This document shows positions 25,966 to 60,498 of a stretch of 64,000 bases of DNA, one piece after another. The notes beneath the pieces were generated by a model. The model ran no database searches and was not told where the DNA came from. It worked only from the letters and a program-made list of their open reading frames with translations. Within the stretch, counting starts at the first letter, position 1; every line of letters starts with the position of its first letter. The DNA is from Blasia pusilla (taxonomy: Eukaryota), in assembly GCA_050084515.1 (NCBI GenBank), contig CM114271.1, positions 15,500,001 through 15,564,000 on the forward strand. Reading direction: 5' to 3'. Position numbers and translations under genes: made by a program.

Positions 25966-28900
25966 TGGAGTATTCCTCATCATCAATCACAAGCGAGAAG
26001 CTAGATAAGCAGAATTACAATGTCTGGAAGTTTCGCATGAAACAATTTCTCATGGATCAAGAACTACGGGAGCTTGTCACATGTGATGAGGCCAAGCCAA
26101 AAAGTGACTCAACAGACTTGAATGTTTGCGTCATGAACAAACGCACAAGGCAAGTAATCCACTACATTTCAATAACAATCACTTCGCCAAAGATAGGTCA
26201 CTCAAGATGTTGATATTCCGAAGGAGGTCTGGGATGCATTGGAAAAGTTGTTCCAGACATCTACAAAGGCCAGAAAGCTTCAATTGAAACAAAAATTGAA
26301 CGAAATGAGGAAAGGATCACAGAGCATCAATGATTATATTTTGAGTATCAGACATATTGTTGATCAATTGAATAGCATTGGAGTGACAGTAGAAGATGGT
26401 AATATGATTTTGTTCACTCTTTAAGGCCTTCCAAAGGATTACAAGTCCTTTGAGACCTCTATCTCTGTGAGAGAGAAGTATCCAACCTTTCAAGAGATAC
26501 GCCTAGCTTGTAGCGGTAGCTCGTCTAGTCTCCAAGAGAATGCGATATTTGTAGGTTATGGATCAAACAGAGGTAGGGGTCGTGGCAGAAACTTCCGTGG
26601 TCGTGGTGGAAATCAAGCATATGGAGGAAGAGGCACTCAATATAACGTCACTCAATCAACTACAAACCAGTACTAGACACAATCACAAGGTGGTGATGGT
26701 GGAAACCGTATGGGTCAAGGTCAACAACAGAGGGTCCTTGGATCTTGCAATTACTGTGGGATAAAGGGTCACTATACAAAGTTTTGCTTCAAGAAGAAGA
26801 TAGATATGAGAATAGGAGCCTTACAGTAACAAAACTATGTGAAGCAACAACACCAAGAACAACAACATTCACAAACAAAGCATCTCTTGGTCATGACTCA
26901 TCATATGGGAGCAATGGTCAATAAAGACTCGACAACAGATTGGTACATTGACTCTGGTGCATCAAATCACATGACCATACAAGTTAAATGGTTCAGTGGT
27001 TTGGAGCTAGTGAAAAATCCTGCAATTGTGCTCATAGGAGATGGCACTCAACATCATATCACGTATACCGATAAAGTTTTAATAGCATCATATGATCTTT
27101 GTGCTCTTGGAAATATTTTCTATATTCCTACAATTCCAGGAAACTTGATCTCTATAGGACAGATAGTGTAACAGGGTTATCAAGTGAAGTTTAACGCAGA
27201 TGGTTATTTCATTGAAACAATGGATGAGTAGAATACGATAGCCAAAGGAACTAGATCAAGCAGAGTGTTCAAATTAGATACTTCTATGTTAGAGATTCAA
27301 ACAACAATGTATGGTCAACTCGGCCAACAAGTCACAAATCTAAATGTGTGGCATAAAAGAATTGGACATATGAATCGTCAAAGATTACATAGTCTTTCAT
27401 CATCTAATATAGTAATAGGACTCCCTAAATTAGCGAGTCTTGTTATGTTAGAGGTATGTCCTGCTTGCGAATTTGGAAAACAAGCTAGATTTCCTTTTCC
27501 AAAGCAAGGTAGAAGAGCATCCATGATATTGGAGTTGATCCACAATGATGTGTGGACAACATCACAACATAGCCTTAGTGGTTGCCAGTACTTTGTTTCA
27601 TTTATTGATGACTTCTCTAGGCATATATGGGTATACTTTCTGAAAGCCAAGTTAGAGCTATTCTCAGTGTTCCAAACATTCAGAGTTCTAGTAGAGAAGC
27701 AGACCGGAGAACACATTCTGAAATTGCGTTGTGATAGAGGAGGAGAGTATCTTTCAACAGAGTTTGATGACTATTTGCGTCAGAATGGTATCCAACGTCA
27801 AGTGACTTGCAGTTACACTCCACAACAAAAAGGAATGGCTGAGAGGAAGAATCGATATATTACTGAAGCGGCACGAGCTATGCTGAATGAGAAGAACATG
27901 CCTAAGGTGTATTGGGCAGAGGCTATAGCATGTGCAGTCTTCTTAATCAACCAAACTCCAACAGCATGAGTTCATGATAAAACTCCATTCAAAGTCTTTA
28001 CATGAAGTAAACCTGATTTTTCCTTCTTGAAAGTATTTGGCTGTATTTGTTATTCTCATGTTCCTTTTGAGAGACGTCAGAAATTAGACCCCAAGTTTAA
28101 AAGATATATCTTCATTGGCTATGTTGATGGAACTAAGGGGTATAAGTGCTACATTCCATCCTCTAGGCAACTTATTATTAGTTGTGATGTTGTCTTTGAT
28201 AAGCTAAAGTCATGGTATGCTCCATCTGAGCCTATTCCATCTCTAAACTCGTTTGTTGAGGGGGAGAATATGACTATAACCAACAGACATTGTCTTCAAC
28301 TTCCCCAAGTACTAGTGTATGATTACGAGAGGTCCTAGATTAATCAGTTAAATCTGTAAGTCCATGGACGGGAAGAGTACGTATTCAGTCTGTTGACACT
28401 AGTAAGAGCACAAGTCACGTGTTAGAGGCATCTATCTCTAAACAACAACTCCGTAGATCAAGTAGAGTTACACATCCAATTCATAGATTCATAAATAAAG
28501 GTTTCCTTATGACACATCATGCATATATGATGACTACCCTTCAAGAACAGGAGCCGAGTTGTTTTGAAGGAACTACAAGCAAAGTCGAGTGGATTGAAGC
28601 TATGGAGGAAGAGCTTGCTGCATTAAGACATCAACAAACATGAGAGCTGGTTGATATACCTTCTGGTAAGGAAGCTATTGGTTGCAAATGGATTTACAAA
28701 ATCAAGTGCAATCAAGTTGGTATAATTAACAGATACAAAGCGAGATTGGTGGCTAAGGGCTATGCACAACAATATGGTATCGATTATGAGAAAATATTTA
28801 GCCCTATTGCAAAGATGGCGACTACGAGAATAGTGGTTGCAGTTGTAGTAAGTAAAAAGTGGAGATTACATCAGATGGACGTTAAGAATGCCTTCTTGAA

Positions 28901-30391
28901 TGGAGATCTATACGAGGAGGTATATATGACTCAACCACTTGGATACGAGCATCCCAAGTTTCCATTTTGCGTATGGAGGTTGAAGAAAACTCTATACGGG
29001 CTTAAACAAGCTCCAAGAGCTTGGTATGGCAAGATTACATACGTCTTACAAGAGTTGGGTTTTAAGGTATGTGATTCTGACTCATCGTTATATGTCTTGA
29101 GAAGATAAGATCATACGGTTCTCATTGTGTTGTATGTTGACGATCTCCTGATTACTAGGAGTACTGAAAAAATGGTACAACAAGTCAAGCTTAAGTTACA
29201 AGCAAAACTTGATATGAAGGACTTGGGAGAACTCAAGTACTTCCTTGGTATTGAGTTTATCAAGGTTGGAGAGAGCATGCGGTTACTACAACAACAATAT
29301 GCTCTTCATATGCTTTCAAATTATGATATGACGGCTTGTAAGCCAATCTCTATACCATTGGACTAGAATATGAAGCTAAGAATGGATGAAGGAGATTTTC
29401 TTGCAAATTCTAATATGTACATACGTATGGATGGAAGTTTGATCTATCTAACTATAACCAGACCAGATTTGAGTTATATTGTTGCCTAGAAAGCGAGTTT
29501 TTGCAAGCACCTCAAAAACCTCACCTTAATATTGTGAGGAGGACTACGCGGTATGTGAAATTCTCTATTCAATTTGGGATTCAATTTGAACCTTCTCCGA
29601 GTTTTCAATTACAAGGATTCACAGATGCTGATTGGGCAAGAAGCGTGCCTGATCGACACTCCACATCTGGTTATTCATTTACTTTGGGAAGCGCAACTAT
29701 AAGTTGGGCTTGAAAGAAGCAACCTACAGTTGTTTTATCTTCAACAGAGGTTGAGTACAGAGGAGCAACCAATGCAGCATGTGAGGTGGTATGGCTTCAT
29801 CGATTACTTGTTAAGATTGATGTTAGTAACTTAAGACCTAGTGTAATATATGCATAAAATATTACTATGATCAAGCTTGCTAATAACCCTATGTTTCATG
29901 CTCGTACAAAGCATGTTGAGGTGCACTATCATTTTATCAGAGAGAAAGTGCTTTAGGAGAAATTGATCTTATGTATATATGTACAGATCAGAAAATTGCT
30001 AACATCTTTACAAAGGCACTGTCCAAAGATAAGTTTGAGATGTTTAGAAATGATTTAGCATTAGAGATATCGATATGAGCTTGAGGGGGAGTATTGAAGA
30101 TTGAGTTAGAGACAAGCTCACGAGACACATGAACTGCTACATTTGGTACTGACATGAAGTTGGTTAGTTAGTTAAGCGCGATTATCTGAACTAGGATTAA
30201 TTAATCACGGTTAGCCTAACCCGAGACTATGGGTAAGGTTAGGGTTAGGGTTTCTTGTACATACCCTATATAATTGAGAAGGGGACCAACCTCCACTTAT
30301 TCTCTCATTGCAAATTTCATTCTCCATGGTGGTGTGTGATTGTAAGAGCCGGTTCCAACCAATTATGCTTCTTTAGCAGTTTTCCATATCA
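25966..30391 (+). mobile_element. Ty1/copia LTR retrotransposon, degenerate; 5' LTR and PBS not found
   Basis: Domains in order: gag (KLDKQNYNVWKFRMK), CCHC knuckle CNYCGIKGHYTKFC (~26746), protease WYIDSGASNHMT, integrase (WHKRIGH..CPAC, DDFSR, AERKNR), RT (QMDVKNAFLNG, LYVDD), RNase H (FTDADWA). PPT GAGGGGGAG at 30083-30091. Many stops and frameshifts. Confidence 0.95.
30092..30391 (+). repeat. Putative 3' LTR of the copia element
   Basis: Starts right after the PPT (TATTG, probably a mutated TGTTG), contains CCCTATATAA and ends ...TATCA. The end position is inferred. Confidence 0.55.
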
Positions 30392-48600: not shown

Positions 48601-51138
48601 CGGCCTCACAGTTCGAACTAAAGCTTCTTGCATGTCACTCCACCCTAGTCTATTCTTGGAAGGCTCAACTATGTGTTGTGTTGGTTGGTGACAAGTCATC
48701 TTTTTGGAGCCTTAGGGACTTGGCGAGGGGTATAATCCAAGTCGAGGCTAACTAACCAAGAAACCTCCAAGTAGATTCCAAGAAAGCTCCTCAAAGGTCA
48801 TATGTGCACATAGGTTATCGAGGGAAGCCAATAGGTCAACCCTGGCCTCTCCACACCTAAATATACATATAGCCTAGCTATTGAGGCACACTATCTACTC
48901 TTGTTCAACTATAAATACTTTATAATATTTAAAAAACGGAGAAAACACAACCTAGACCTTGATTCGAGCATGGCATAGAAATTTTTTCAACTAACAATGA
49001 AAACTATGAAATTTGAGGATAGATGATGTAAGTAAGAGTTTAAAATAGGAAATAAAGCAAATAAACCCATGCATACACTACAATACAAATTATAACTTTT
49101 TCATAAGATAGTGTTGGCATAAAAAATTGAAGAGAGCTTATAAAAATCCCATAGCTATACTATTATGTGAGGAGGGCCTCTTGGATGGCGACACCTAACT
49201 TTTGCGCAATGTGTCAATTGCGTGTCTTGAGAGTCTACCATGTGTCATGCTTTATCTCATTATCACAACTTACCTTTTCAAATTTAAAACTACTTTTTTT
49301 TACCCCAAAGCGGTTACTCAATGGATCCCTAAAATTCCATAGAAGTGAGTAGAGAAGTGAGTAGCATGAGTTCATTTCTCTTGAGTGCTTCTCACTTTCC
49401 ATGAGAGACAGTAGCCTCAATTCTCATTTCCTATTACTCAATTTAGGCTGACTAGGCGTGTTTAGTGGAGTAGTTGCTATTTTTTTTTAGTAAGCTAAAT
49501 GACTAATGGTTAAAATTTAAAATACATGCAAAGATTACCGTAGGCTGGTGGGCTTCATGTTCAAGTGACGCAAGCAACAATGACCTTAAGAAAAAAGAGA
49601 GGAGCTCTTTTAGTGGAGAATTTCATTAAGCAATATTTTATTGATTTTCAATCCGAGTCAACTACACATCAAGAACGTGCTGATCATATTAGAGAGTAGT
49701 GAGTACTTGAAGCAATAATGAGGGTGAACTTTCATGATTTCTTTATTATTATAGTTGAGTCTACAATGCTTGCCTTAGACTTGAACATTAAAAAAAGAGC
49801 TCCACATCATCTCCTACTATGAAATGTAACACATTTCTTTTGAATACTTGGAGATCAATACTTCTACAAAGGCGGCCAAGACTTCCACCTTATCAATAGT
49901 ATGTATCTATCCTCCTAGGCTAAACCTTCAATCTGCTTCATTTTCGGCATGTTGATTTGTCGCCATCAAGATTAGCATGCACAAACACAAAAATCAATGA
50001 TTAATATTTGGTAGTTGATTTTCTCCCTACTTAACCATTATCCAGTGTCTGAATGTAAAATTCTCAAGGGAGTACTTCACAATGATTAGATGGATAGCTA
50101 AAACATCAACACAAGGAAAGAAGCCAGTGATCTTGACTATTGGGCTGTCAAAAAATACTTTGGAGTAAAGTCTCCAAATGTCGTTACTTATGTGAGAGAA
50201 TACAATAAATCAACTTCATCAACACAATACATTAGACCAGCAAGCCCAAAATACTCAATTTTGAATCCGAAAATCATAATAGATCCAAATGTCAAGTAGT
50301 CTATAGAAAAATGATAGAGGAAATGGCAAGGGAGGTTTAGGAGTCATGAAAGTCCTAAAAAGGACTACACTGTTCAAGTAGGCAAAACTACACGAGAGTC
50401 ACTTGCATATTTTTCAAGTCCATCTGATCAACTTTTTGTGATTCAACTCATGAGTCCAACCCTTCAAGAAATTCTACCTCACTCAAAAATTATCTCAAAT
50501 TTTCAACCAACTCAGATTCAGAGTACTATCCACCTCCTCAAGAGTCCCTCGAGTATGAACAAGTAGGTGCTACACTAAAGGAACCTATTGATCTTGAGAG
50601 CTCATAGAGGAAAAGACTCAAGTTCGAGTCCTAGAAGGCTCATGTCAACTCTTGGATGGGCACTTACATATACCAACTATGTAGAGCTCAGATGTATTTA
50701 GCTGAATCAAAGAAAAATGCTCTTCAAAAAGTCATATCATAAGTGCGACAACACTTGAGATTCTCACTCTTATTTATGAATCCTATTCATGTGCAAATGT
50801 GTGATCTCACTGATTTTTTTTTCCCTTTTCCACTTTCTCTCCTTTTGTCTTCTTGCACATGATCGCATCTTTTAATCATCTCATGCCCGCAAGTTGCATT
50901 GCAGAAATCAATAGTAACTTAGGTGCGATTTAGGCAAGAAACTAGATAAGGAGGGATGAGCGTAATGAGCAAATTAAGAGCAAGCAAGAACATGTAACTG
51001 AAAGCAAGTAATAGGAAAGAGCCATAAAGGATTTTTGAGTAGCCGCGACCAAGCAACAATGAGCAAGGGCTAACATCCAAATGTAGAAAGGAGAGAGACA
51101 AAATCCAAGAGTTACATGGAGAAAAAATTTGAAGAGAA

Positions 51139-51141
<3 letters not shown>

Positions 51142-51211
<70 letters not shown>
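51142..51211. repeat. (AG)35 microsatellite
   Basis: Perfect AG dinucleotide run. Confidence 0.97.
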
Positions 51212-51212
<1 letters not shown>

Positions 51213-53488
51213 CCAAGAGCCTTTCTTGGTATGCCAAAATTTGGTGCTAGAGCGGCCAAGAGGGGAAGAGCAACAGAGAGCCATAACTAAGAGAAGAGAA
51301 TGCCAATAGCCGAGTCTTGTGGTCGAAAGTCCTTGGGTTCCTTTTATTGGAACTATGTTTTCATTTACGTGCTTTATAGGGAGCTAATCTATAGAGTCGA
51401 GAGTTGTGCACTAGAGCATCAACCAGGAATGAGGGGGTTTGTGGGTCAAGCAAGGATGTGAATCGAGGGCAGATTTGAGTTGAGACTAAGGTACACATCT
51501 ACCTGAGTAGAAGGGCCCAGACGTCCATACTTAAGCCACCGCCAAGTAGAGAAGGAATCAAAGGGCCAAATTTAGATGCCCTAGATTGGATGGCCAGATC
51601 TAAGTCCCAAGATAAAACATTTATATTTGGGGGGAAGATGGACGGTTGGATGGCCACTTGCACTCTTTTCAATTTCTGGTATCTCTAAGGGTCCTTTTTT
51701 TCTCAATATTTCATACGTTCTCCTTCCCTACGGAGGAAACATAAAAAATCCTAACTTCAAAAAAATTTCCCCAAACATGTCTTCTACCCTCATGTTATGA
51801 TTTCTTGTTTGGAATTTTTTTTCCTTACCATATCTACTTTCTTCATATTACAAATGTCCTCTGTCTTTCATGAGATTTTTCGCATATTTTCTTTCATTGA
51901 TTGTAGATTCTATCTATGCCCACGTATGACCTTTCAAATTTTTTGCCAAACCATTGGTTTTATTTCATTATTCTTACATGGCGTTTTATTGTTCAAGTCA
52001 TTGTAGGGGAGTATTGAAAGAATGCAGAAGGAGTCATTTCATGACATAACAAACCTACCACTTCCAAACACAAGAACAAACAATCCATCGGCTTCATAAA
52101 TTAATTCAAACATCTCCAACGTACGTTAACTATTTTCTTCATTCCATTATGCTTCGTATTTTATATAATGTCATAATATTATGTTTAGGTTAAAAAATTA
52201 TGTAGAAGTTACTAATTTTGTGGAGTAAGAACTACACACTCTCTATTCCATCAAAACCTCTCGACATATGTGATTTTCAAAGAGATTTACATGGCGAGGC
52301 CCTAAGATAAAATCGTGAAATTTGTGCGGAGAAATTAGCTATTCAAATGATATAAGCACATCTTCCTTGAATATCCCCAATGTAAGTTCCTTCCTTTGAA
52401 ATTTTTCATCTGATTTCCTTTTTTTTCATATTTATCCCAAATATCATTTAGGTAAGTTAAGACTTATTAACTTCATTGTGTGAAAAAACATATTAGAATA
52501 CCATAAAACCCTAGGGATATACGATATTTTTGAAAAGTATTGCATGGTGAGGCATAGAGACAAAATCGACTCATTCATGGGCAATTCCCTCCAAAGGAAT
52601 ACATCTTCCCCAACTTCAAATAATGCCAATGTAAGTTAATTCTACAGTAAGGTATTTGACTCTACTTTATTTTGACTTCATTGTATGAAAACTATTTTTC
52701 TGGACCTCCTCTTCCATCAAATTCTACATATATATACATGATTTTATGAAGGTATTATGGGCTGAGGCACAAAAAAGAAAACAAGCTCTTTGTATAGAGA
52801 AGTTGGCACATGAAAAAGAGAATAGATGGATTTATCAGAGGGAAAATAAATGGAGAAGGCGTGCCCTTCAACAAGACTTGGATGGTGCTCTTATTATAGA
52901 GGTAATTCAAGATGATATATATAATGTCCCATTGGACTCTCCAATTCAAGATGTTGTGAGATATACACAGATTTGATTACGTGACAATCCTTTTTTTTTG
53001 GTTAATTTGAATATTTTTTCAATGAAAATTATAATTTATCTTTTAGGTGTTTAGGTGAGAATAATGCTATGGATATTCCTTCTCATGATAGGAATACTTC
53101 CGATCCTCATTTCATTCAAAAAAATATATCCTGAAGGATATGGGGTTGAGATACCTAGTGTGGCAATCATTAAAGAGGAGGTGTGTATTCTTGGAGATCA
53201 AGAACATGAAGCCGTTGAGGATGCTTCCATACTTGAATTATTGAGATATGTTATTGAGTTATGTACATGAAAGAATTGAGAACATACTTTTACACTTTGT
53301 GAATGGAAACCCAAGAGTCAGAGGAGCTATGCTTCCTACTTCAACAAATGTTCATATATTGGCTAATATGCGGAGGATTGTAAAAGTCAACAAGTTACTC
53401 AAGCTTGCACTCATTCAAAACTTCAAAGAAAGTGATGTAAGAAATTGGGATGCCTTTAATTGTAAGTCGATAAATATGTTGTCTTACT

Positions 53489-53627
53489 ATTGGAAATATG
53501 ATTGAGATATGTCCTTCATGTCATGCTTATCATTGGAAATATGAGAACATAAAGGCTACAAGGTTTCCCAACTCACCTTTTGGTATATTTTGCGATCATG
53601 GAAAAATACAACTTCCATTATTGAAAA
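53489..53627 (+). pseudogene. Helitron Rep/Helicase N-terminal Cys-rich fragment
   Basis: IGNMIEICPSCHAYHWKYENIKATRFPNSPFGIFCDHGKIQLPLLK matches the IGxM..CxxCxAxxWxxE..CCxxGKxxLP pattern. Upstream ORF pieces at 52746-53480 are probably the same gene. Confidence 0.7.
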
Positions 53628-54555
53628 CGAGGGGGCTGGTATTCCGGTAGGAGAGAGAGGAAGAGAGGAGAGACTCTCTTCTAAAAAAGGACAAAATCCT
53701 CAACCTCTCTTCAAAACTTTATTCTATTTTTAAAGATTCTCCTCTACTTCAAATGCAAGAAATGTTTAAAAGAGAGTTACTAGTGGACCAGATTGGGGCA
53801 AAAACTAACCTCATTGTTTCAGACCAAGTTCTGAAAATGGAAATGTGAAGCCCTCTTTGAACATGCTTAAATCACTCTCTATGTAAGCCACATTAGGGTG
53901 TGAAGGGTATCAAAGTTTTTACTAGACTATTTGTGTAAGCGAGATTTACCAAATTTCTATGTAAGCCAACAAGAGTAACTACAGTGGACTTAAGGAGTGA
54001 AGGATGAGGCTTCTCAATAGACGAAAAGATTATGGGCTCTTATTCCAAGACTCCCAGCCTCATTCCCAACACTTTCTCAGAATTCAACAACCAGTTATGA
54101 CAATCTTGAAGAGAAAGGAAGTCAAAGAGAGGAGAGATGATTTGCTAATAGGCTTATTCACAAACTCCATTATTCCTTCATTATAGTTTGTCAGAAATGT
54201 GTATGTTGCAAGAAATAGATATTAAAGATGGACTTGAACTTGGAAGTAGAGGATACAAAAAGTAGTAAAGAGACAGTGAGGATGTGAGGTTGGTACAAAA
54301 TGGAGGATTGCAATTTTTCCAAGAATGACTCAGAAGACTAGGAGGCCATGGATGACATGCAAGACTTGGCTAAGCAATGCATATATGGAGTCTTTTATTA
54401 AGTTGATGGATGTTTGGAAAGTATGGTTAAACACAAATGTCATAAGTTAAGGAAGCCAAAGTGATGAAGGAAATGACAACTAGTTCTGGGAGTAGCGAAA
54501 AATCATTGGAGACAAATGGAATTGAATTTTGATAATTGACCAACCTAGAAGTCAT

Positions 54556-57500
54556 TCCTACAAGAGTCGGAATCCCACAAGTTGCAGGATATGAGAAGAG
54601 AAGTTTGCAACCTCTTAGAAGATTACATGTTAGAAAAGTATGGTTTGAAATGAATGGAGGAAAGAGAGGAAAAGATATAGGCATTCATTCATGAAACTTG
54701 TCGGAATCCGACAGGTTGCATGACATAACTAAGTATAGGAAGAGTTGTAAGATATGACTAATCAGAGATAAGGAAAAAAAATGAATGAGAGGAAAGATAT
54801 GACCACTGAAAAATTGAAGGAAATAACCTAACCTACATGTGAAGATATGATAGGAAACCCACAGGTTCCATTCAGATTAGAGGTTAGAGAAAAGAAAGAG
54901 CGAGTGAGATGAAAAGGATGCAATCATACAGACTTGCAACCTGTCGGAATCAGATAAGTTGCATGAGAGGATGGAAATTAATTAGGGTAACAAGAAGGAA
55001 ACATCAATATGAAGAAACGTTAGGAAACACACAAATTCCATTTAGACATGCAACCCATCGGAATTCGACAGATTGGAAGACATGACGACGACTATAACAA
55101 TTATGAGACATGACTCTCAAAGGCAAGAAAAAAAAGATAAGGAAGGACAACATTGTCACTGCATGACATGGCTGCTTGCAACCTGCCAGAATTCGATGGG
55201 TTGCAAGACCTATCATATTTGAAAATTCTTGCTACTCATAACAAAACCTTGGTTACAAAAAAGAAAAAGAATGAAGGCAGTCATCTGAAATTCATAGTAG
55301 GCAATCATCTGGACCTCCAACCTGTTGCAATCCGACAGGTTGAATGACATAATGTAAGCAAAAAGGGCTCAAAAGAAAACCTCCACTGGCTGCATCCAGA
55401 CATGCAACCCGTCAGGTTGCAAGATATGACAGCAAAAGAAATAGTTGTGAGACATGACTTATTAGAGGGAAGACAAAAGAAAGGTTAACATCGACACATG
55501 CGCAACCCGTCGAAATCCGAAAAGTCACAAGACATAAGAACTAAAGAATTTCAGGAGACATCTTCACATCAATGCGATAAAATCATAGCAAGTATAGAGG
55601 TTCCATTCTGACTTGCAACCTGTCGGAATTTGATGGGTTGCAAGACATACCATTTGTCCACAAGAGATTACCAGAGCAAAAAATCGATTTCAACATGTCG
55701 GAATTTAACAGCTCCAATAATACCAAACCATTAAAATCAAGAAAATTTTATGAAAAACATCAAATTCCTTTATTACAATTCGTTTTCAACTTGGATATTT
55801 ACATTGGATTACCTAAACTAGAAAATCTAGTCTATGATCTCTTTTGCCTCGTCATTTGCAAAATTGTTCCTAACTCTTATTGGTTCTTGTATAAGGGACT
55901 TATCTGGGCTATCCACTAGCTCCTCTTCACAATTGTAGGTGAGGATTGAGAAACAAGGAGAATTGGAGAGCCTTCTCCCCCTAAAAACACCCATATCGAT
56001 TCCATGTGGCCCAACATAAGTCCCAACGTCTGTCCCGACAAGTTACCTTGTATGTTCTACAAAGGGACACCCATCTAGAATCAATATCATCTAGAACCCT
56101 AAACCTCCGCTTGAAACCACTACAACCCAACTCCAAACGCTTGAAATCCAAGACACCTACGCACTCACTTGTCATCATTAGAGAGCTCTTCTAGAATCAC
56201 CGCCGACTTTGCTCGCATAATTTTTGGAATTACTGGTAGTGACGATGGTATCATCACCAATGGCTCTCATGCATGTGCACTTTTCCGTGAAGGCGACCTA
56301 TAAAATCTTAGTTACCTCTCCTAATCCGCCTTTGCCTCATGATAAAGTGCAAATAGCTGCTTCCTTGACTCCATGCACAGAATGTTTCTTCCACTTTGCT
56401 AGAAGGCTCTTACATTGGCCCCAAATAGCCCCACCAGATCTAAGACTAGGTCACCAAGCCTCGAGGAGAGCTCCACTAGGGTTTGCATAAGCGTCGTAGA
56501 CTTTTCCCTCCCTCCAAGACGCAACGTTCCTTCCTCCATGACAATTCCCGGGGATGAATTGTAGAGGCTGTTCAATGTGTAACCATTGGAGGCAGGATCA
56601 CAATGATCCTCGATCTAAAAAATCTCGGACCTATGCTCCGGTCTGATGAAACAATACACATACAAATACTTGGACTGTGCAGAAGAAAATGGCAAAAGCA
56701 TGTAAGCTTTAAGGAGGAAGTGTTTCAAGGAATGATTTTCTTGCAAAGCAACCCAACGGATCCCAACGGGTAGCAAGTATTAGAATTTTGATGCATAGTT
56801 CTAAAACACTACTGAGCAAAAAATAGTCATAAACTTTGGAGGGGCCCATGCAACCTGTCAGGATCTGACGGGTTGCTCAACACCTCCTAATTGAATAAGA
56901 CTCAATTTGGATCCATGTATTTGGGTGTATCTGCAACTTGTTGGAATCCGATGAGTTGTAGAATGTGTTGCACGTGCTCACATAAAAATGGGATTTTCAA
57001 ACTGTCGGAATCGGGGCGTAGGAATAATGTACTCCCTTAAACCAAATCCGATCAAATATTTGTAGTTTGATTTTGAGGACTTACCCAGAGTTGTTTTGTT
57101 GGAGATCTCAACGGCGAATCATTCTTGACTATCCAAGACTGCGCCGTCTACCACTTCAGTGATCGCTTGACGCAATGCAAGTTGAAGAGCTCAATTTTGC
57201 AGTCTCTAGTCAAAACAAGGAAACATCCCTTATCACTCAGATACACATTTGCGAAGGAGAACATCAATGCGATCTGATCGTATATGAAGGGAGACTTCTA
57301 ATCTGGAAGAGTGTCGCGTGGTTCATTGTCTCACAACCTGAATCCCAATGTCAAATCTACAATTAGGAGATCAACTGTAATCTCCTTAGCTATCCCATTG
57401 ACAATCTATGGGGCATGTACACCATATGATAACAACCCGATTCCAACGGTTTGCAAATCCTATTTATCTATCAGCAGTCACGAATGCTTGTGCCTCCGTA

Positions 57501-58651
57501 TTAACTTCAAAATACTCCTCAACCTTCAAGACATTGAGGATCTCCTCCTTGCCAGTTGCAGCTGCATCATAGAATGCTTGTAACGTTTGGTCGCTAAGCT
57601 CCTATTGGTTGTTGAAGTCCGACCAGACTGGACAATTCAGAACTCCCCGATCGATTATTGCTTGAGCCATCTCCACGTCGTACATGGAGAATCCATGTCC
57701 ATTTGGAGGAGCAACCCACAATTTGCACGCGACGGTTTTTCGTTGGCGTCTAGTAATTGCCTTCAACTCCTTGATGAAATTCGGGATGAGCTCGGAGTTG
57801 CATCTTGCTCGCCGTGTACTTCGTAGTTGCCGACACAACACCATGGATGAACTTCGTGCTCTCGGAAGCTGAAACCTTCTCCCTGGGCTCCAACACCAAT
57901 GTTGCATTTCTCTTTGCTACCTGGATTTTAGACAAGCATAGAATTGTAACGATTGCATCTTAGGAGGTGTATGTGTTCGCACAAGTCTTCTTCTTGATTT
58001 GTGCTCTGTTAGTGAGCATCTCATCGACCACTTCGTCTCCTAGGAATCCTTTGAACTGAGCAATGTGCAATGTAAGCATCTTCTTCATCTGTCGTATACT
58101 TGGATCCAATGATGTGTGACATTCTCTTCCAAAACGACCCTTCAAGGTTCAATCCTCTGTTATAGTTCATATATCATGCAACTTGTTGGTTTTAGACAAG
58201 TTGCACAAAGACTAACATTGCCATACACAAAAAAATACGAACATCTGACCTTTGCTTGCAACTTGTCAAAGTCCGACAGGATGGAAAATTTCCTTTAGAA
58301 AGCTTCTTTGGTAGATGGCCTTGGGAGTTGCAACAACCCGTCAGTGTCCAAATGGTTGCACCGCCATGAGATAAGTCTTTCCAGAATACAACCTATTGGA
58401 ATCCGACAAGTTGCATCCAATCCCTGTCGGAGTCTGAGAGATTTTGAATCCCTCGACTTATCGATTGACGGATCGGCCTTTTTGCAACCTATCGGACTCC
58501 GACGGGTTGCAATTTCCCAGCAACTTGTGGAGAATGACATTATCTTAGAGTCTTAGAGTCTCAACTCCAATGGGTTGCTTTTCGTCCAAAATTATACAAC
58601 TCTCGGATAAATTCTGTAGGAGTTGCAACCCGTCGGACTCCGACGGGTTGC
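54556..58651. repeat. About 20 dispersed copies of a 29-bp palindrome, consensus TGCAACC(T/C)GTCGGA(A/C)TCCGAC(A/G)GGTTGCA
   Basis: Copies at ~54560, 54692, 54935, 55049, 55177, 55316, 55403, 55501, 55614, 55690, 56748, 56849, 56932, 56997, 57433, 58177, 58257, 58330, 58387, 58483 and 58624. Confidence 0.9.
56316..58156 (-). pseudogene. Spliced beta-class N4-cytosine/N6-adenine DNA methyltransferase-like gene (N6_N4_Mtase fold), degenerate
   Basis: Exon 57405-57085: IVNGIAKEITVDLLIVDLTLG..FANVYLSDKGCFLVL..SWIVKNDSPLRSPTKQLW. It splices GT-AG in phase 0 to the exon starting at 56674: SKYLYVYCF..REKSTTLMQTLVELSSRLGDLVLDLVGLFGANVRAF*QSGRNILCMES. An unknown N-terminal region lies at 58156-57480. 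Confidence 0.7.
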
Positions 58652-58669
58652 CCCTGAACCTAACTAGTG
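58624..58669. mobile_element. Transposon terminus: CACTA-type right end (...TAGTG) or Helitron 3' end (hairpin + CTAG|T)
   Basis: GCAACCCGTCGGACTCCGACGGGTTGC-CCCTGAACCTAA-CTAGTG. The palindrome copies stop here. Confidence 0.55.
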
Positions 58670-59436
58670 CCTGGTATCTCCATTGGTACGATGGATGCTC
58701 CAAGACCAATCTATCACATACTCCTGCATCTTGGTTTCAACCACCCCTCTTAAGGTGTTATTCTAATAAGGTGTTTCACCCAATTCTCAACAGAAGTTGC
58801 ACACTAGCTCTTCATGCAATCCATATCATTTTCCATTTCAGGTTTGTAAGTGATTACCCTCATCTGCATGGTTCAGTGGAAGACCTTGTCAGAATGTACA
58901 ATCTTTCCATCTCTTGACGTTTTAAAAAGTGAAATCTAAAAGAAGTTGAATTTTAATTTCAAAAAAGATATGCCCAACTAGTGGAAAACTGAATCTCCTC
59001 ATAGTGACTTGTTTCCTTGTCACTTGAGGCTCTCGATATCCCCTCTGCTGCCACACTCGAGGGCTGCATTTTGGAGTTTCATGCAACAAGAACAAATTGA
59101 CAGGAAAATTTTACGCAGACAGATTATTCCATTCCCATCCAAGTTTTCCTTCGAAACTGAAAGCATTCCCAAGTTGGAAGACCAGGCAACAGATGTTTCA
59201 GATTGCGGTATCACATTTAAATGAAAACTAGAAATTAAGTTGAATCTGGCTCAGTGGAGCAATAAATAATCTGAACGCATCACTAGGTTGTAAGGAAAGC
59301 ATGATTGAACAAACTCACATTTACACTTGGTTCAACAGTCTTAATGCCACCAAACCTCACTCCATTCAGATGTGCGTTAACAGAATATTTTTTCCTGTAC
59401 TCTTTAGTGGTTATCTACAGAGCAGCTACCTGACGT

Positions 59437-60498
59437 TTATGTGTGAGGCTTAAATAAGCTAAGAGGTACAGAAAGCCTTACAACTGGACCCACAAACGAC
59501 AACCAAGTTAGTAGATACTTGCTCAAGACATGTGGGGTAAGGTTGACTGACCCTATGGGACTGTTTTCTGAATAATGAGAGGAAGCATCTGGACTAACAG
59601 CAACGGCTGTTTGCATGTTGAGCATGTGCTCTACCTGACGAGATTCTGGGTCTAGCTCTGGAACACAACCCTTGCTGCCTTCATCAGAGAGAAAAAGTGA
59701 CATTATACAACTCGTGCCACAAGGATGCAGGGAGAACCATGGTCGATGTAAATACGGATGCTCCTGATCAGTAGAATACTCATGGATTAGTTCCTGTATA
59801 TGAAATTAATGACAAAAATTACCCGTCCCTCTGAGTTCTCTGGTATTCTAACTGAAAAGATCCAGAACTCAACTGGAAAGGCCATTTTCGCACTCATTAT
59901 TCTTATGATTACAATCACAGCTTTGGAGCAGAAATAGACACTTCGTCCACTTGGAAATGAAAATTGAAGGCTTGTTTCTATTTGGGGGGATGACAATCTT
60001 TCACTCCAAGGCCCCCCTTCTAGAAGACCACAAATATTGTCCAGAATTGTCCCCAACAACTGCAAGAATGGAAGGACAACGTAATTGTTTATAGTGGGCT
60101 ACCTCTTGTGTAAGAAAAGTCCACTTAGATTCTTCCATCAATTGGACTGATTGTGATGGCAGGATTCGTTTAACATGGGCCAGGTCCAGAAGTTTTCCAT
60201 CTGCAAAGCACAAAATAGCTTCACTTGAAATCTAAATGGATTGAAAAAAAACCATGAATTACCTATATAAACAACTTGGCATTTCACAAAAGAGAAGTTC
60301 CAATTCAAGTTAGGTCATCATTGATCTGATTTTGTACAATAAATGGAACAGATTTATGACAAGATTTGATGTAGGATAAGGATGCTCTATACCAGGATAG
60401 TAAGCTCGAAAGAAGAGAACAGGAACCCTGTATGACTCGCTGTAAACAATATGATAAGTGCCATACGAATATTGTTCAGCTGGATGAGTCTTCATTAC
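59437..60498 (-). CDS. ATG10: Autophagy E2-like enzyme ATG10, last three exons (5' exons not found; probably beyond the window)
   Basis: Exons 60498-60393 (YHIVYSESYRVPVLFF), 60200-60103 (DGKLL..WTFLTQE) and 59763-59437 (EHPYLHRPWFSLHPCGT with the catalytic Cys..YLLTWLSFVGPVV). All in frame. Confidence 0.92.

Follow-up and report, generated by a model that had tools for sequence, protein, structure and literature searches.

On the minus strand of the 64-kb window, the whole stretch of 64,000 nucleotides of contig CM114271.1 that was analysed here, lies a broken reading frame that resembles the C-terminal part of the beta-class N6/N4 DNA methyltransferases (Pfam family PF01555). This methylase-like block stands in repeated, palindrome-rich DNA, directly downstream of the 3' end of a gene related to ATG3/ATG10 (Table 1). 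An earlier note on this DNA had described the locus as a dead beta-class amino-DNA-methyltransferase gene, interrupted by a spliceosomal intron and carried inside a transposon-like element, with a catalytic half in an upstream block ("exon 1") and the S-adenosylmethionine (AdoMet)-binding half in a downstream block ("exon 2"). Reading the three minus-strand frames of 56200-58250, we recovered all the peptides on which that description was built: TVDLLIVDLTLG, ANVYLSDKGCFLVL and WIVKN stand in a single frame of the upstream block, and KYLYVYCF and EKSTTLMQTLVELSSRLGDLVLDLVGLFGANVRAFxQSGRNILCME stand in a single frame of the downstream block.

Table 1. Features of the methylase-like locus (first five lines) and of its surroundings in the window. 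Positions are those of the whole stretch; E, expectation value.
Feature	Position	Strand	Observation
Downstream broken reading frame ("exon 2")	56316..56674	minus	PF01555 C-terminal match
Putative AdoMet-binding C-terminal module (motif X/I/II region), PF01555-type	56345-56569	minus	Part of the 56316..56674 frame
Claimed "exon 1" with TVDLLIVDLTLG, ANVYLSDKGCFLVL, WIVKN	57085..57399	minus	3 stops in 105 codons; at chance level
Proposed GT..AG intron, 410 nt	56675..57084	minus	Splice-site letters; 3 full palindrome units and a half-site inside
27-bp palindrome cluster, GCAACCYGTCGG-ANT-CCGACRGGTTGC	54559..58651		Flanks the methylase-like stretch and also occurs within it
Upstream frame, 151 codons, one stop	57464..57916	minus	Without Pfam family, or homologue among the longer proteins searched
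ATG3/ATG10-type autophagy E2-like gene exon	59437-59805	minus	PF03987, E 1e-12
Ty1/copia-type retroelement remains	27232-29108	plus	gag_pre-integrs E 1.5e-12, rve E 3.5e-11, RVT_2 E 1.8e-50

The frame of the downstream block is interrupted by two internal stops, with a possible natural stop soon past the domain end, and its resemblance to DNA methyltransferases was ascertained in several ways. First, PF01555 (N6_N4_Mtase) is the sole Pfam family matched by the downstream piece (E 0.002-0.003; 18-18.6 bits). The match covers positions 165-217 of the 221 positions of the profile, i.e. the motif X/I/II end of the permuted domain; the motif I region, in the final quarter of the profile, is soon followed by the end of the frame. 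This was the only relevant match in the six-frame Pfam scans of 49000-58998, performed at E<=1 for 53500-58998 and at E<=0.1 for 49000-53499. Second, the four PHROG matches are all DNA methyltransferase families (best E 2e-4), the best NCBIfam match is a DNA methyltransferase subfamily, and a sequence search of the PDB placed M.RsrI on top (E 0.094), with methyltransferases making up four of the eight chains listed. Third, Smith-Waterman alignments with three phage enzymes that are clear members of PF01555 (E 7.6e-42 to 5.8e-25) gave z-scores of 4.9-10.3, and for each enzyme none of 500 shuffled sequences scored as high.

Fourth, an exhaustive HMMER search of 1.84 billion representative proteins returned four proteins at E<=0.001, one of which, P0003, is a credible relative (E 1.1e-4). 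P0003 is a 107-amino-acid open reading frame from a Logan contig, forming a singleton cluster, and is identical to the window piece at 28 of 60 residues (47%; BLASTP E 6e-14). Taken alone, it matches PF01555 at positions 168-208 (E 0.063; 13.6 bits, below the gathering cut-off of 26.7), and 23 of its 30 protein-atlas neighbours are clusters with PF01555 in every member. When P0003 was compared by tblastn with 50,697 phage records, 19 of the 20 places listed were annotated DNA methylase or methyltransferase genes (best E 5e-3), the remaining one being a capsid gene (E 3). Each of the other three, P0001, P0002 and P0004 (E 7e-6 to 5e-4), is a long protein of tandem repeats that matched in 4-6 stretches, and these matches were taken as repeat-driven.

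The window piece and P0003 were combined into a two-row profile (A1), and the three phage enzymes were aligned as A2. The hhalign comparison of A1 with A2 gave a probability of 95% (E 3.7e-8) over 54 columns of the motif X/I region. A PDB search with A1 listed eight chains, six of which are N6/N4 DNA methyltransferases (DpnA, E 0.005; RsrI, 0.011; MboIIA, 0.67; 2zie, 1.5). In the motif I region, DLVGLFGAN in the window and DLSDGCGAS in P0003 are aligned to the DPFxGSGTT of the phage enzymes, DpnA and RsrI, so that the glycines are partly retained and P, F and S/T are substituted. Both proteins are divergent in the same places, with STT standing in place of QKP and LDL..G..GA in place of LDPF.GSGT. 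Together, the Pfam match, the hhalign comparison and the shuffled controls support the resemblance of the motif X/I/II block to the beta class, and the reading of the downstream block as a true relative of these enzymes.

A chance resemblance, with no methyltransferase ancestry at all, is very unlikely, because of the hhalign E-value and because the downstream piece outscored all 500 shuffles. It is true that each match of the window piece is weak when taken singly (Pfam below its cut-off; best PDB E 0.09), and that the AlphaFold2 model of P0003, built from the two-row alignment, was uninformative (predicted local distance difference test score, pLDDT, 44.7). Against chance, the independent libraries all rank DNA methyltransferases first, at the same motif region, and P0003, an independent relative, behaves alike. 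We therefore regard chance as a highly improbable explanation.

It is also conceivable, if rather improbable, that a complete gene never existed in this lineage, and that repeat DNA captured just 60-110 codons or so of a methyltransferase C-terminus, or that a bacterial or viral leftover is seen here. Such a fragment would explain that the C-terminal module alone is detectable, that the sole relative, P0003, spans this same module and that no longer relatives were found. However, the non-canonical residues common to the window copy and P0003 (STT for QKP, DL for DPF), at 47% identity, suggest a diverging protein family rather than a single dead fragment. Furthermore, P0003 may represent a single exon from a longer gene, and scanning viral, metagenome and prokaryote-genome contigs with A1 yielded no relative, close or otherwise.

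For the upstream block, which the earlier note had read as the catalytic half with motifs IV and VI, all the searches were negative. Pfam gave no PF01555 and, as sole match, DUF4321 (E 0.12); the PDB search gave nothing at E<=10; NCBIfam and PHROG gave no methyltransferase; and a six-frame scan run without filters, for which the three phage enzymes or their profile served as queries, had the downstream piece as its only hit and found no match in this block. Its scores against the three enzymes were equalled by 453, 466 and 101 of 500 shuffles, respectively (z -1.1 to 0.7), and hhalign against A2 gave a probability of 0.45% (E 0.13). In addition, the catalytic motif IV, (D/S/N)-P-P-(Y/F), is missing from the block, its sole candidate reading DLTL. 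The motif IV-VIII half is thus not borne out, being indistinguishable from shuffled sequence, and for this reason the order of motif IV before motif I is not demonstrated on this copy. At most, the upstream block is a possible catalytic half of a methyltransferase.

These results bear on the proposal that the locus is a complete two-exon beta-class gene (motifs IV-VIII in 57399-57085; motifs X-I-II in 56674-56316) with a true intron, which a DNA transposon with palindrome-marked ends would carry as its cargo, a proposal that we consider unlikely. Both in phmmer with the Xanthomonas phage enzyme and in hhalign with A2, the upstream block has its best local alignment exactly at motif IV (SVD..L.D.PY), and the spacing of DLTL, LSDKG, WIVKN and YLYVY fits the family order in an unscored reading by eye. 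Against this stands the chance level of the upstream block in all tests.

The proposed intron starts with GTAAGT, ends with TTTTCTTCTGCACAG (a pyrimidine run followed by CAG) and joins W to S in phase 0; these good splice sites speak for the two-exon gene. Among 30 GT x AG pairs nearby, ten keep the frame, and eight of these do so with no added stop. The in-frame join is accordingly little evidence, as 8 of the 30 pairs would join the frames equally well. Moreover, palindrome units lie within the intron at 56748, 56850 and 56933, with a half-site at 56997, so the 410 nt can equally well be read as inserted repeat DNA. In three RNA-seq runs carrying the same species label (6-12% of each sampled), the RNA depth was 0 on both flanking exons, and no spliced read across 57084/56675 occurred among the joints listed; the lack of RNA reads also counts against the two-exon gene. 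The GT-AG letters and the in-frame join of the claimed spliceosomal intron stand, whereas the claim finds no RNA read on its side and competes with eight equivalent pairs. That this copy is dead, as previously stated, is confirmed by the stops in both frames and by the lack of RNA reads.

Two other features were noticed in this region. A 41-nt inverted repeat, 80% complementary (56975-57015 and 57436-57476, 420 nt apart), brackets the putative exon 1, and each of its arms carries a palindrome half-site, so that the "exon" could be part of a small foldback-like unit. Rfam proposed a mir-1420 precursor on the minus strand at 56745-56879, scoring 29.7 bits for a gathering threshold of 70 (E 0.0033). 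As this candidate spans two intron palindromes, it was rejected as probably a hairpin look-alike.

The 27-bp palindrome is concentrated at this locus. Eighteen full units (up to eight changes) were found in the window, 17 of them in the cluster, and the half-site (up to two mismatches) occurs 34 times, for 2.78 expected, with 31 occurrences in the cluster and none of 100 shuffles reaching 34. The units form a left block (54559-55641) and a right block (58178-58651), in addition to those within the "intron", and are spaced by 55-245 bp within blocks. This is the clustering expected of subterminal repeats, though some palindromes are internal. The blocks on either side suit the two-exon gene carried by a transposon; their further copies within the "intron" and in the space separating the frames, and the lack of termini and transposase, do not. 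About 120 DNA reads link a palindrome like that at 58625-58651 to one like that at 58484-58510 through a 38-letter G+C-rich spacer absent from the window, so that the palindromes stand in closer arrays elsewhere in the genome. A full-text literature search for the palindrome half-sites returned unrelated papers only.

Copy number was assessed from whole-genome DNA reads carrying the same species label (about 1% of the run; likeness threshold of 82%). The single-copy baseline, a mean depth of 0.63, was taken from the five bins right of 58925; the depth reached 4.1-5.4 in the exon-2 bins, 9.8-11.5 in the exon-1 bins and about 200 in the bin 58491-58707, which holds the two best palindromes. We read the palindrome as a high-copy repeat of the genome. 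Of 3158 DNA reads placed, 45 were at least 99% alike and 2835 less than 95% alike. These values suggest that the methylase-like stretch belongs to an old family with few copies, 6-18 diverged copy equivalents as a rough estimate. Read depth and palindrome clustering both suggest that the stretch lies in repeated, palindrome-rich DNA and not in a single-copy host gene, which supports the earlier note on this point. Its transposon-cargo claim is partly supported, by the palindrome cluster and the raised depth, whereas neither termini nor a transposase were found; a methyltransferase as transposon cargo is plausible but unproven.

In the same read data, very high depths mark three short segments, 57623-57839 (about 86), 53500-53720 (about 107) and 55670-55886 (about 64), with sharp loose read ends at 57799, 53720 and 55825, respectively. 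These segments are pieces of other high-copy repeats, and the first of them sits inside the upstream frame (57602-57916, within 57464-57916).

From the foregoing, we propose, with a rough probability of 0.55, that the locus is what remains, decayed and untranscribed, of a divergent PF01555-type gene spread within repeat DNA. The recognisable remainder would be the C-terminal AdoMet-binding module only, i.e. motif X, the G-x-G loop of motif I and motif II. This relic sits in a 4.1-kb repeated block studded with copies of the palindrome, downstream of the expressed ATG3/ATG10-like gene. Given the repeated block and its roughly 6-18 copies, the gene probably spread as part of the repeat. We infer that the carrier is most likely what remains of a non-autonomous DNA transposon, the palindromes presumably being protein-binding subterminal repeats, and that the gene may once have encoded a complete enzyme. 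This copy would have no present function.

Several observations weigh against this interpretation. First, the Pfam score of the downstream piece (18.6 bits) is below the PF01555 gathering cut-off (26.7), the family comprises two members only over all searches (the window piece and P0003), and no full-length relative was found among the longer proteins searched. Second, 3067 of the 3158 DNA reads (97%) lie only partly on the stretch, which makes their depth a rough copy estimate, and they yielded no assembled copy; the single-copy baseline amounts to a handful of reads. Third, the ends and the machinery of a transposon were not found. The inverted-repeat list and the comparison of the left and right flanks disclosed no terminal inverted repeats beyond the palindrome units, the flank comparison yielding palindrome matches and chance-level words only. 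On inspection, without a formal test, no target-site duplication, CACTA-type ends or 3-bp duplication was seen. The six-frame Pfam scans of 49000-58998 disclosed no transposase, reverse transcriptase or SET domain, nor any ParB or oxygenase remnant. The region has no tandem array, and no pair of long terminal repeats or other long repeat flanks it.

A bolder version of our proposal is that the host, if a land plant, harbours an undescribed family of DNA transposons with arrays of the 27-bp palindrome and a divergent beta-class amino-methyltransferase of its own as accessory gene, the intact copies of which might write N6-methyladenine (6mA) or N4-methylcytosine (4mC) on their palindromes, or bind to them. 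We regard this as a speculative and improbable extension; if true, such a family would be the counterpart of the red-algal PAG cassette discussed below.

Concerning the surroundings, the ATG3/ATG10-like exon, 2 kb away from the methylase-like block, has an RNA depth of 3-12, on the side where a transcript of the minus strand would place it, and RNA reads span about 59150-60000 at this gene. Between the two, a segment of about 200 bp (58705-58911) shows a DNA depth of about 46 and RNA from both directions (59-84 and 15-28); it has no Pfam or Rfam match, and since nearly all its reads carry fixed differences from the window, their source is paralogous copies that are expressed. The upstream frame 57464-57916 belongs to no Pfam family and has no homologue among longer proteins, and a protein-atlas search with the upstream 104-amino-acid frame stayed at chance level (best score 0.83, recognition 2102). 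Farther away, the window holds a (GA/CT)n microsatellite at about 51140-51215, which reads SLSLSL or RERERE and caused spurious matches to Atrophin-1, as well as the Ty1/copia-type remains.

To our knowledge, PF01555 enzymes are rare in eukaryotes, the few acquisitions described being Marchantia DN4MT1, bdelloid N4CMT and red-algal PAG2. A further, very divergent lineage located in repeat DNA would be one more example of mobile elements that come with a DNA-modifying enzyme of their own. As the copy studied here is dead, its value is that it points to a transposon-associated lineage of methyltransferases in the host genome that is possibly new, and it offers no function to study at the locus itself.

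When compared with the beta-class PF01555 enzymes M.RsrI (1eg2), DpnA (5hek) and M.MboIIA (1g60), the C-terminal block aligns to their motif X/I/II and domain end, and the reading frame ends soon after motif I/II, as in the permuted order. Where these enzymes have QKP and LDPF-x-GSG, the window has STT and LDL-x-G-x-x-G, and no catalytic (D/S/N)PP(Y/F) is detectable in it, the candidate reading DLTL. Unlike these enzymes, the window frame is broken by stops, stands in a eukaryotic setting and is silent in the three RNA runs.

The subterminal repeats of En/Spm (CACTA) elements, which are bound by TnpA, are short motifs arranged in inverted, tail-to-tail orientation over several hundred bp on both sides of the element, and the 12-bp TnpA motif contains CCGACA. 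The palindrome cluster may resemble these repeats, CCGACA included, a likeness that we offer as a lead only. Unlike En/Spm, the locus has no visible CACTA termini, transposase or 3-bp duplication, and its palindromes also occur in the middle of the block.

Marchantia DN4MT1a/b (bioRxiv 10.1101/2021.02.12.428880) and bdelloid N4CMT (PMC8885841) belong to the same Pfam family as the window remnant and also occur in eukaryotes; according to these sources, they are host-domesticated genes that gained introns after transfer. As described there, these host genes, single or in tandem, are intact and expressed, have TSPPY/SPPY motifs and possess a demonstrated 4mC activity, whereas the window remnant is dead, apparently multi-copy, unexpressed and devoid of a catalytic motif. 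In the exhaustive search, P0003 was the sole credible relative at E<=0.001.

The last system to be compared is that of the red algae, where, according to bioRxiv 10.1101/2025.02.11.637652, giant elements of the Plavaka (EnSpm/CACTA), Mutator, Zisupton and Fanzor types are stated to carry PAG2, an accessory gene combining PF01555 with SET, and to hold inverted-repeat arrays beside the ParB-like PAG3. In Asparagopsis, 66 N6_N4_Mtase genes are mentioned in PMC12115072. A transposon-borne PF01555 enzyme is therefore of a known kind, because the red-algal elements carry PAG2, and the existence of such transposons also lends some credit to the two-exon gene considered above. The idea put forward in the earlier note is thus not new; our literature search for a land-plant transposon with PF01555 returned red-algal cases only, within the parts of the sources available. 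The locus differs from the red-algal elements, as they are described in that text, by its size (about 4 kb, as compared to 17-19 kb), by the lack of any SET, ParB-like, 2-oxoglutarate (2OG)-oxygenase or transposase remnant at E<=1 in 53500-58998 or at E<=0.1 in 49000-53499, and by the lack of a PAG2 relative of the window piece in the exhaustive protein search. The host is probably not a red alga; from the read depth, its genome would measure about 3 Gb, as a rough estimate. Similarly to PAG2, judging from its description, the window remnant is a PF01555-type gene that is probably lodged in multi-copy, mostly degenerate eukaryotic mobile DNA, and the palindrome cluster around it recalls the inverted-repeat arrays that stand beside PAG3.

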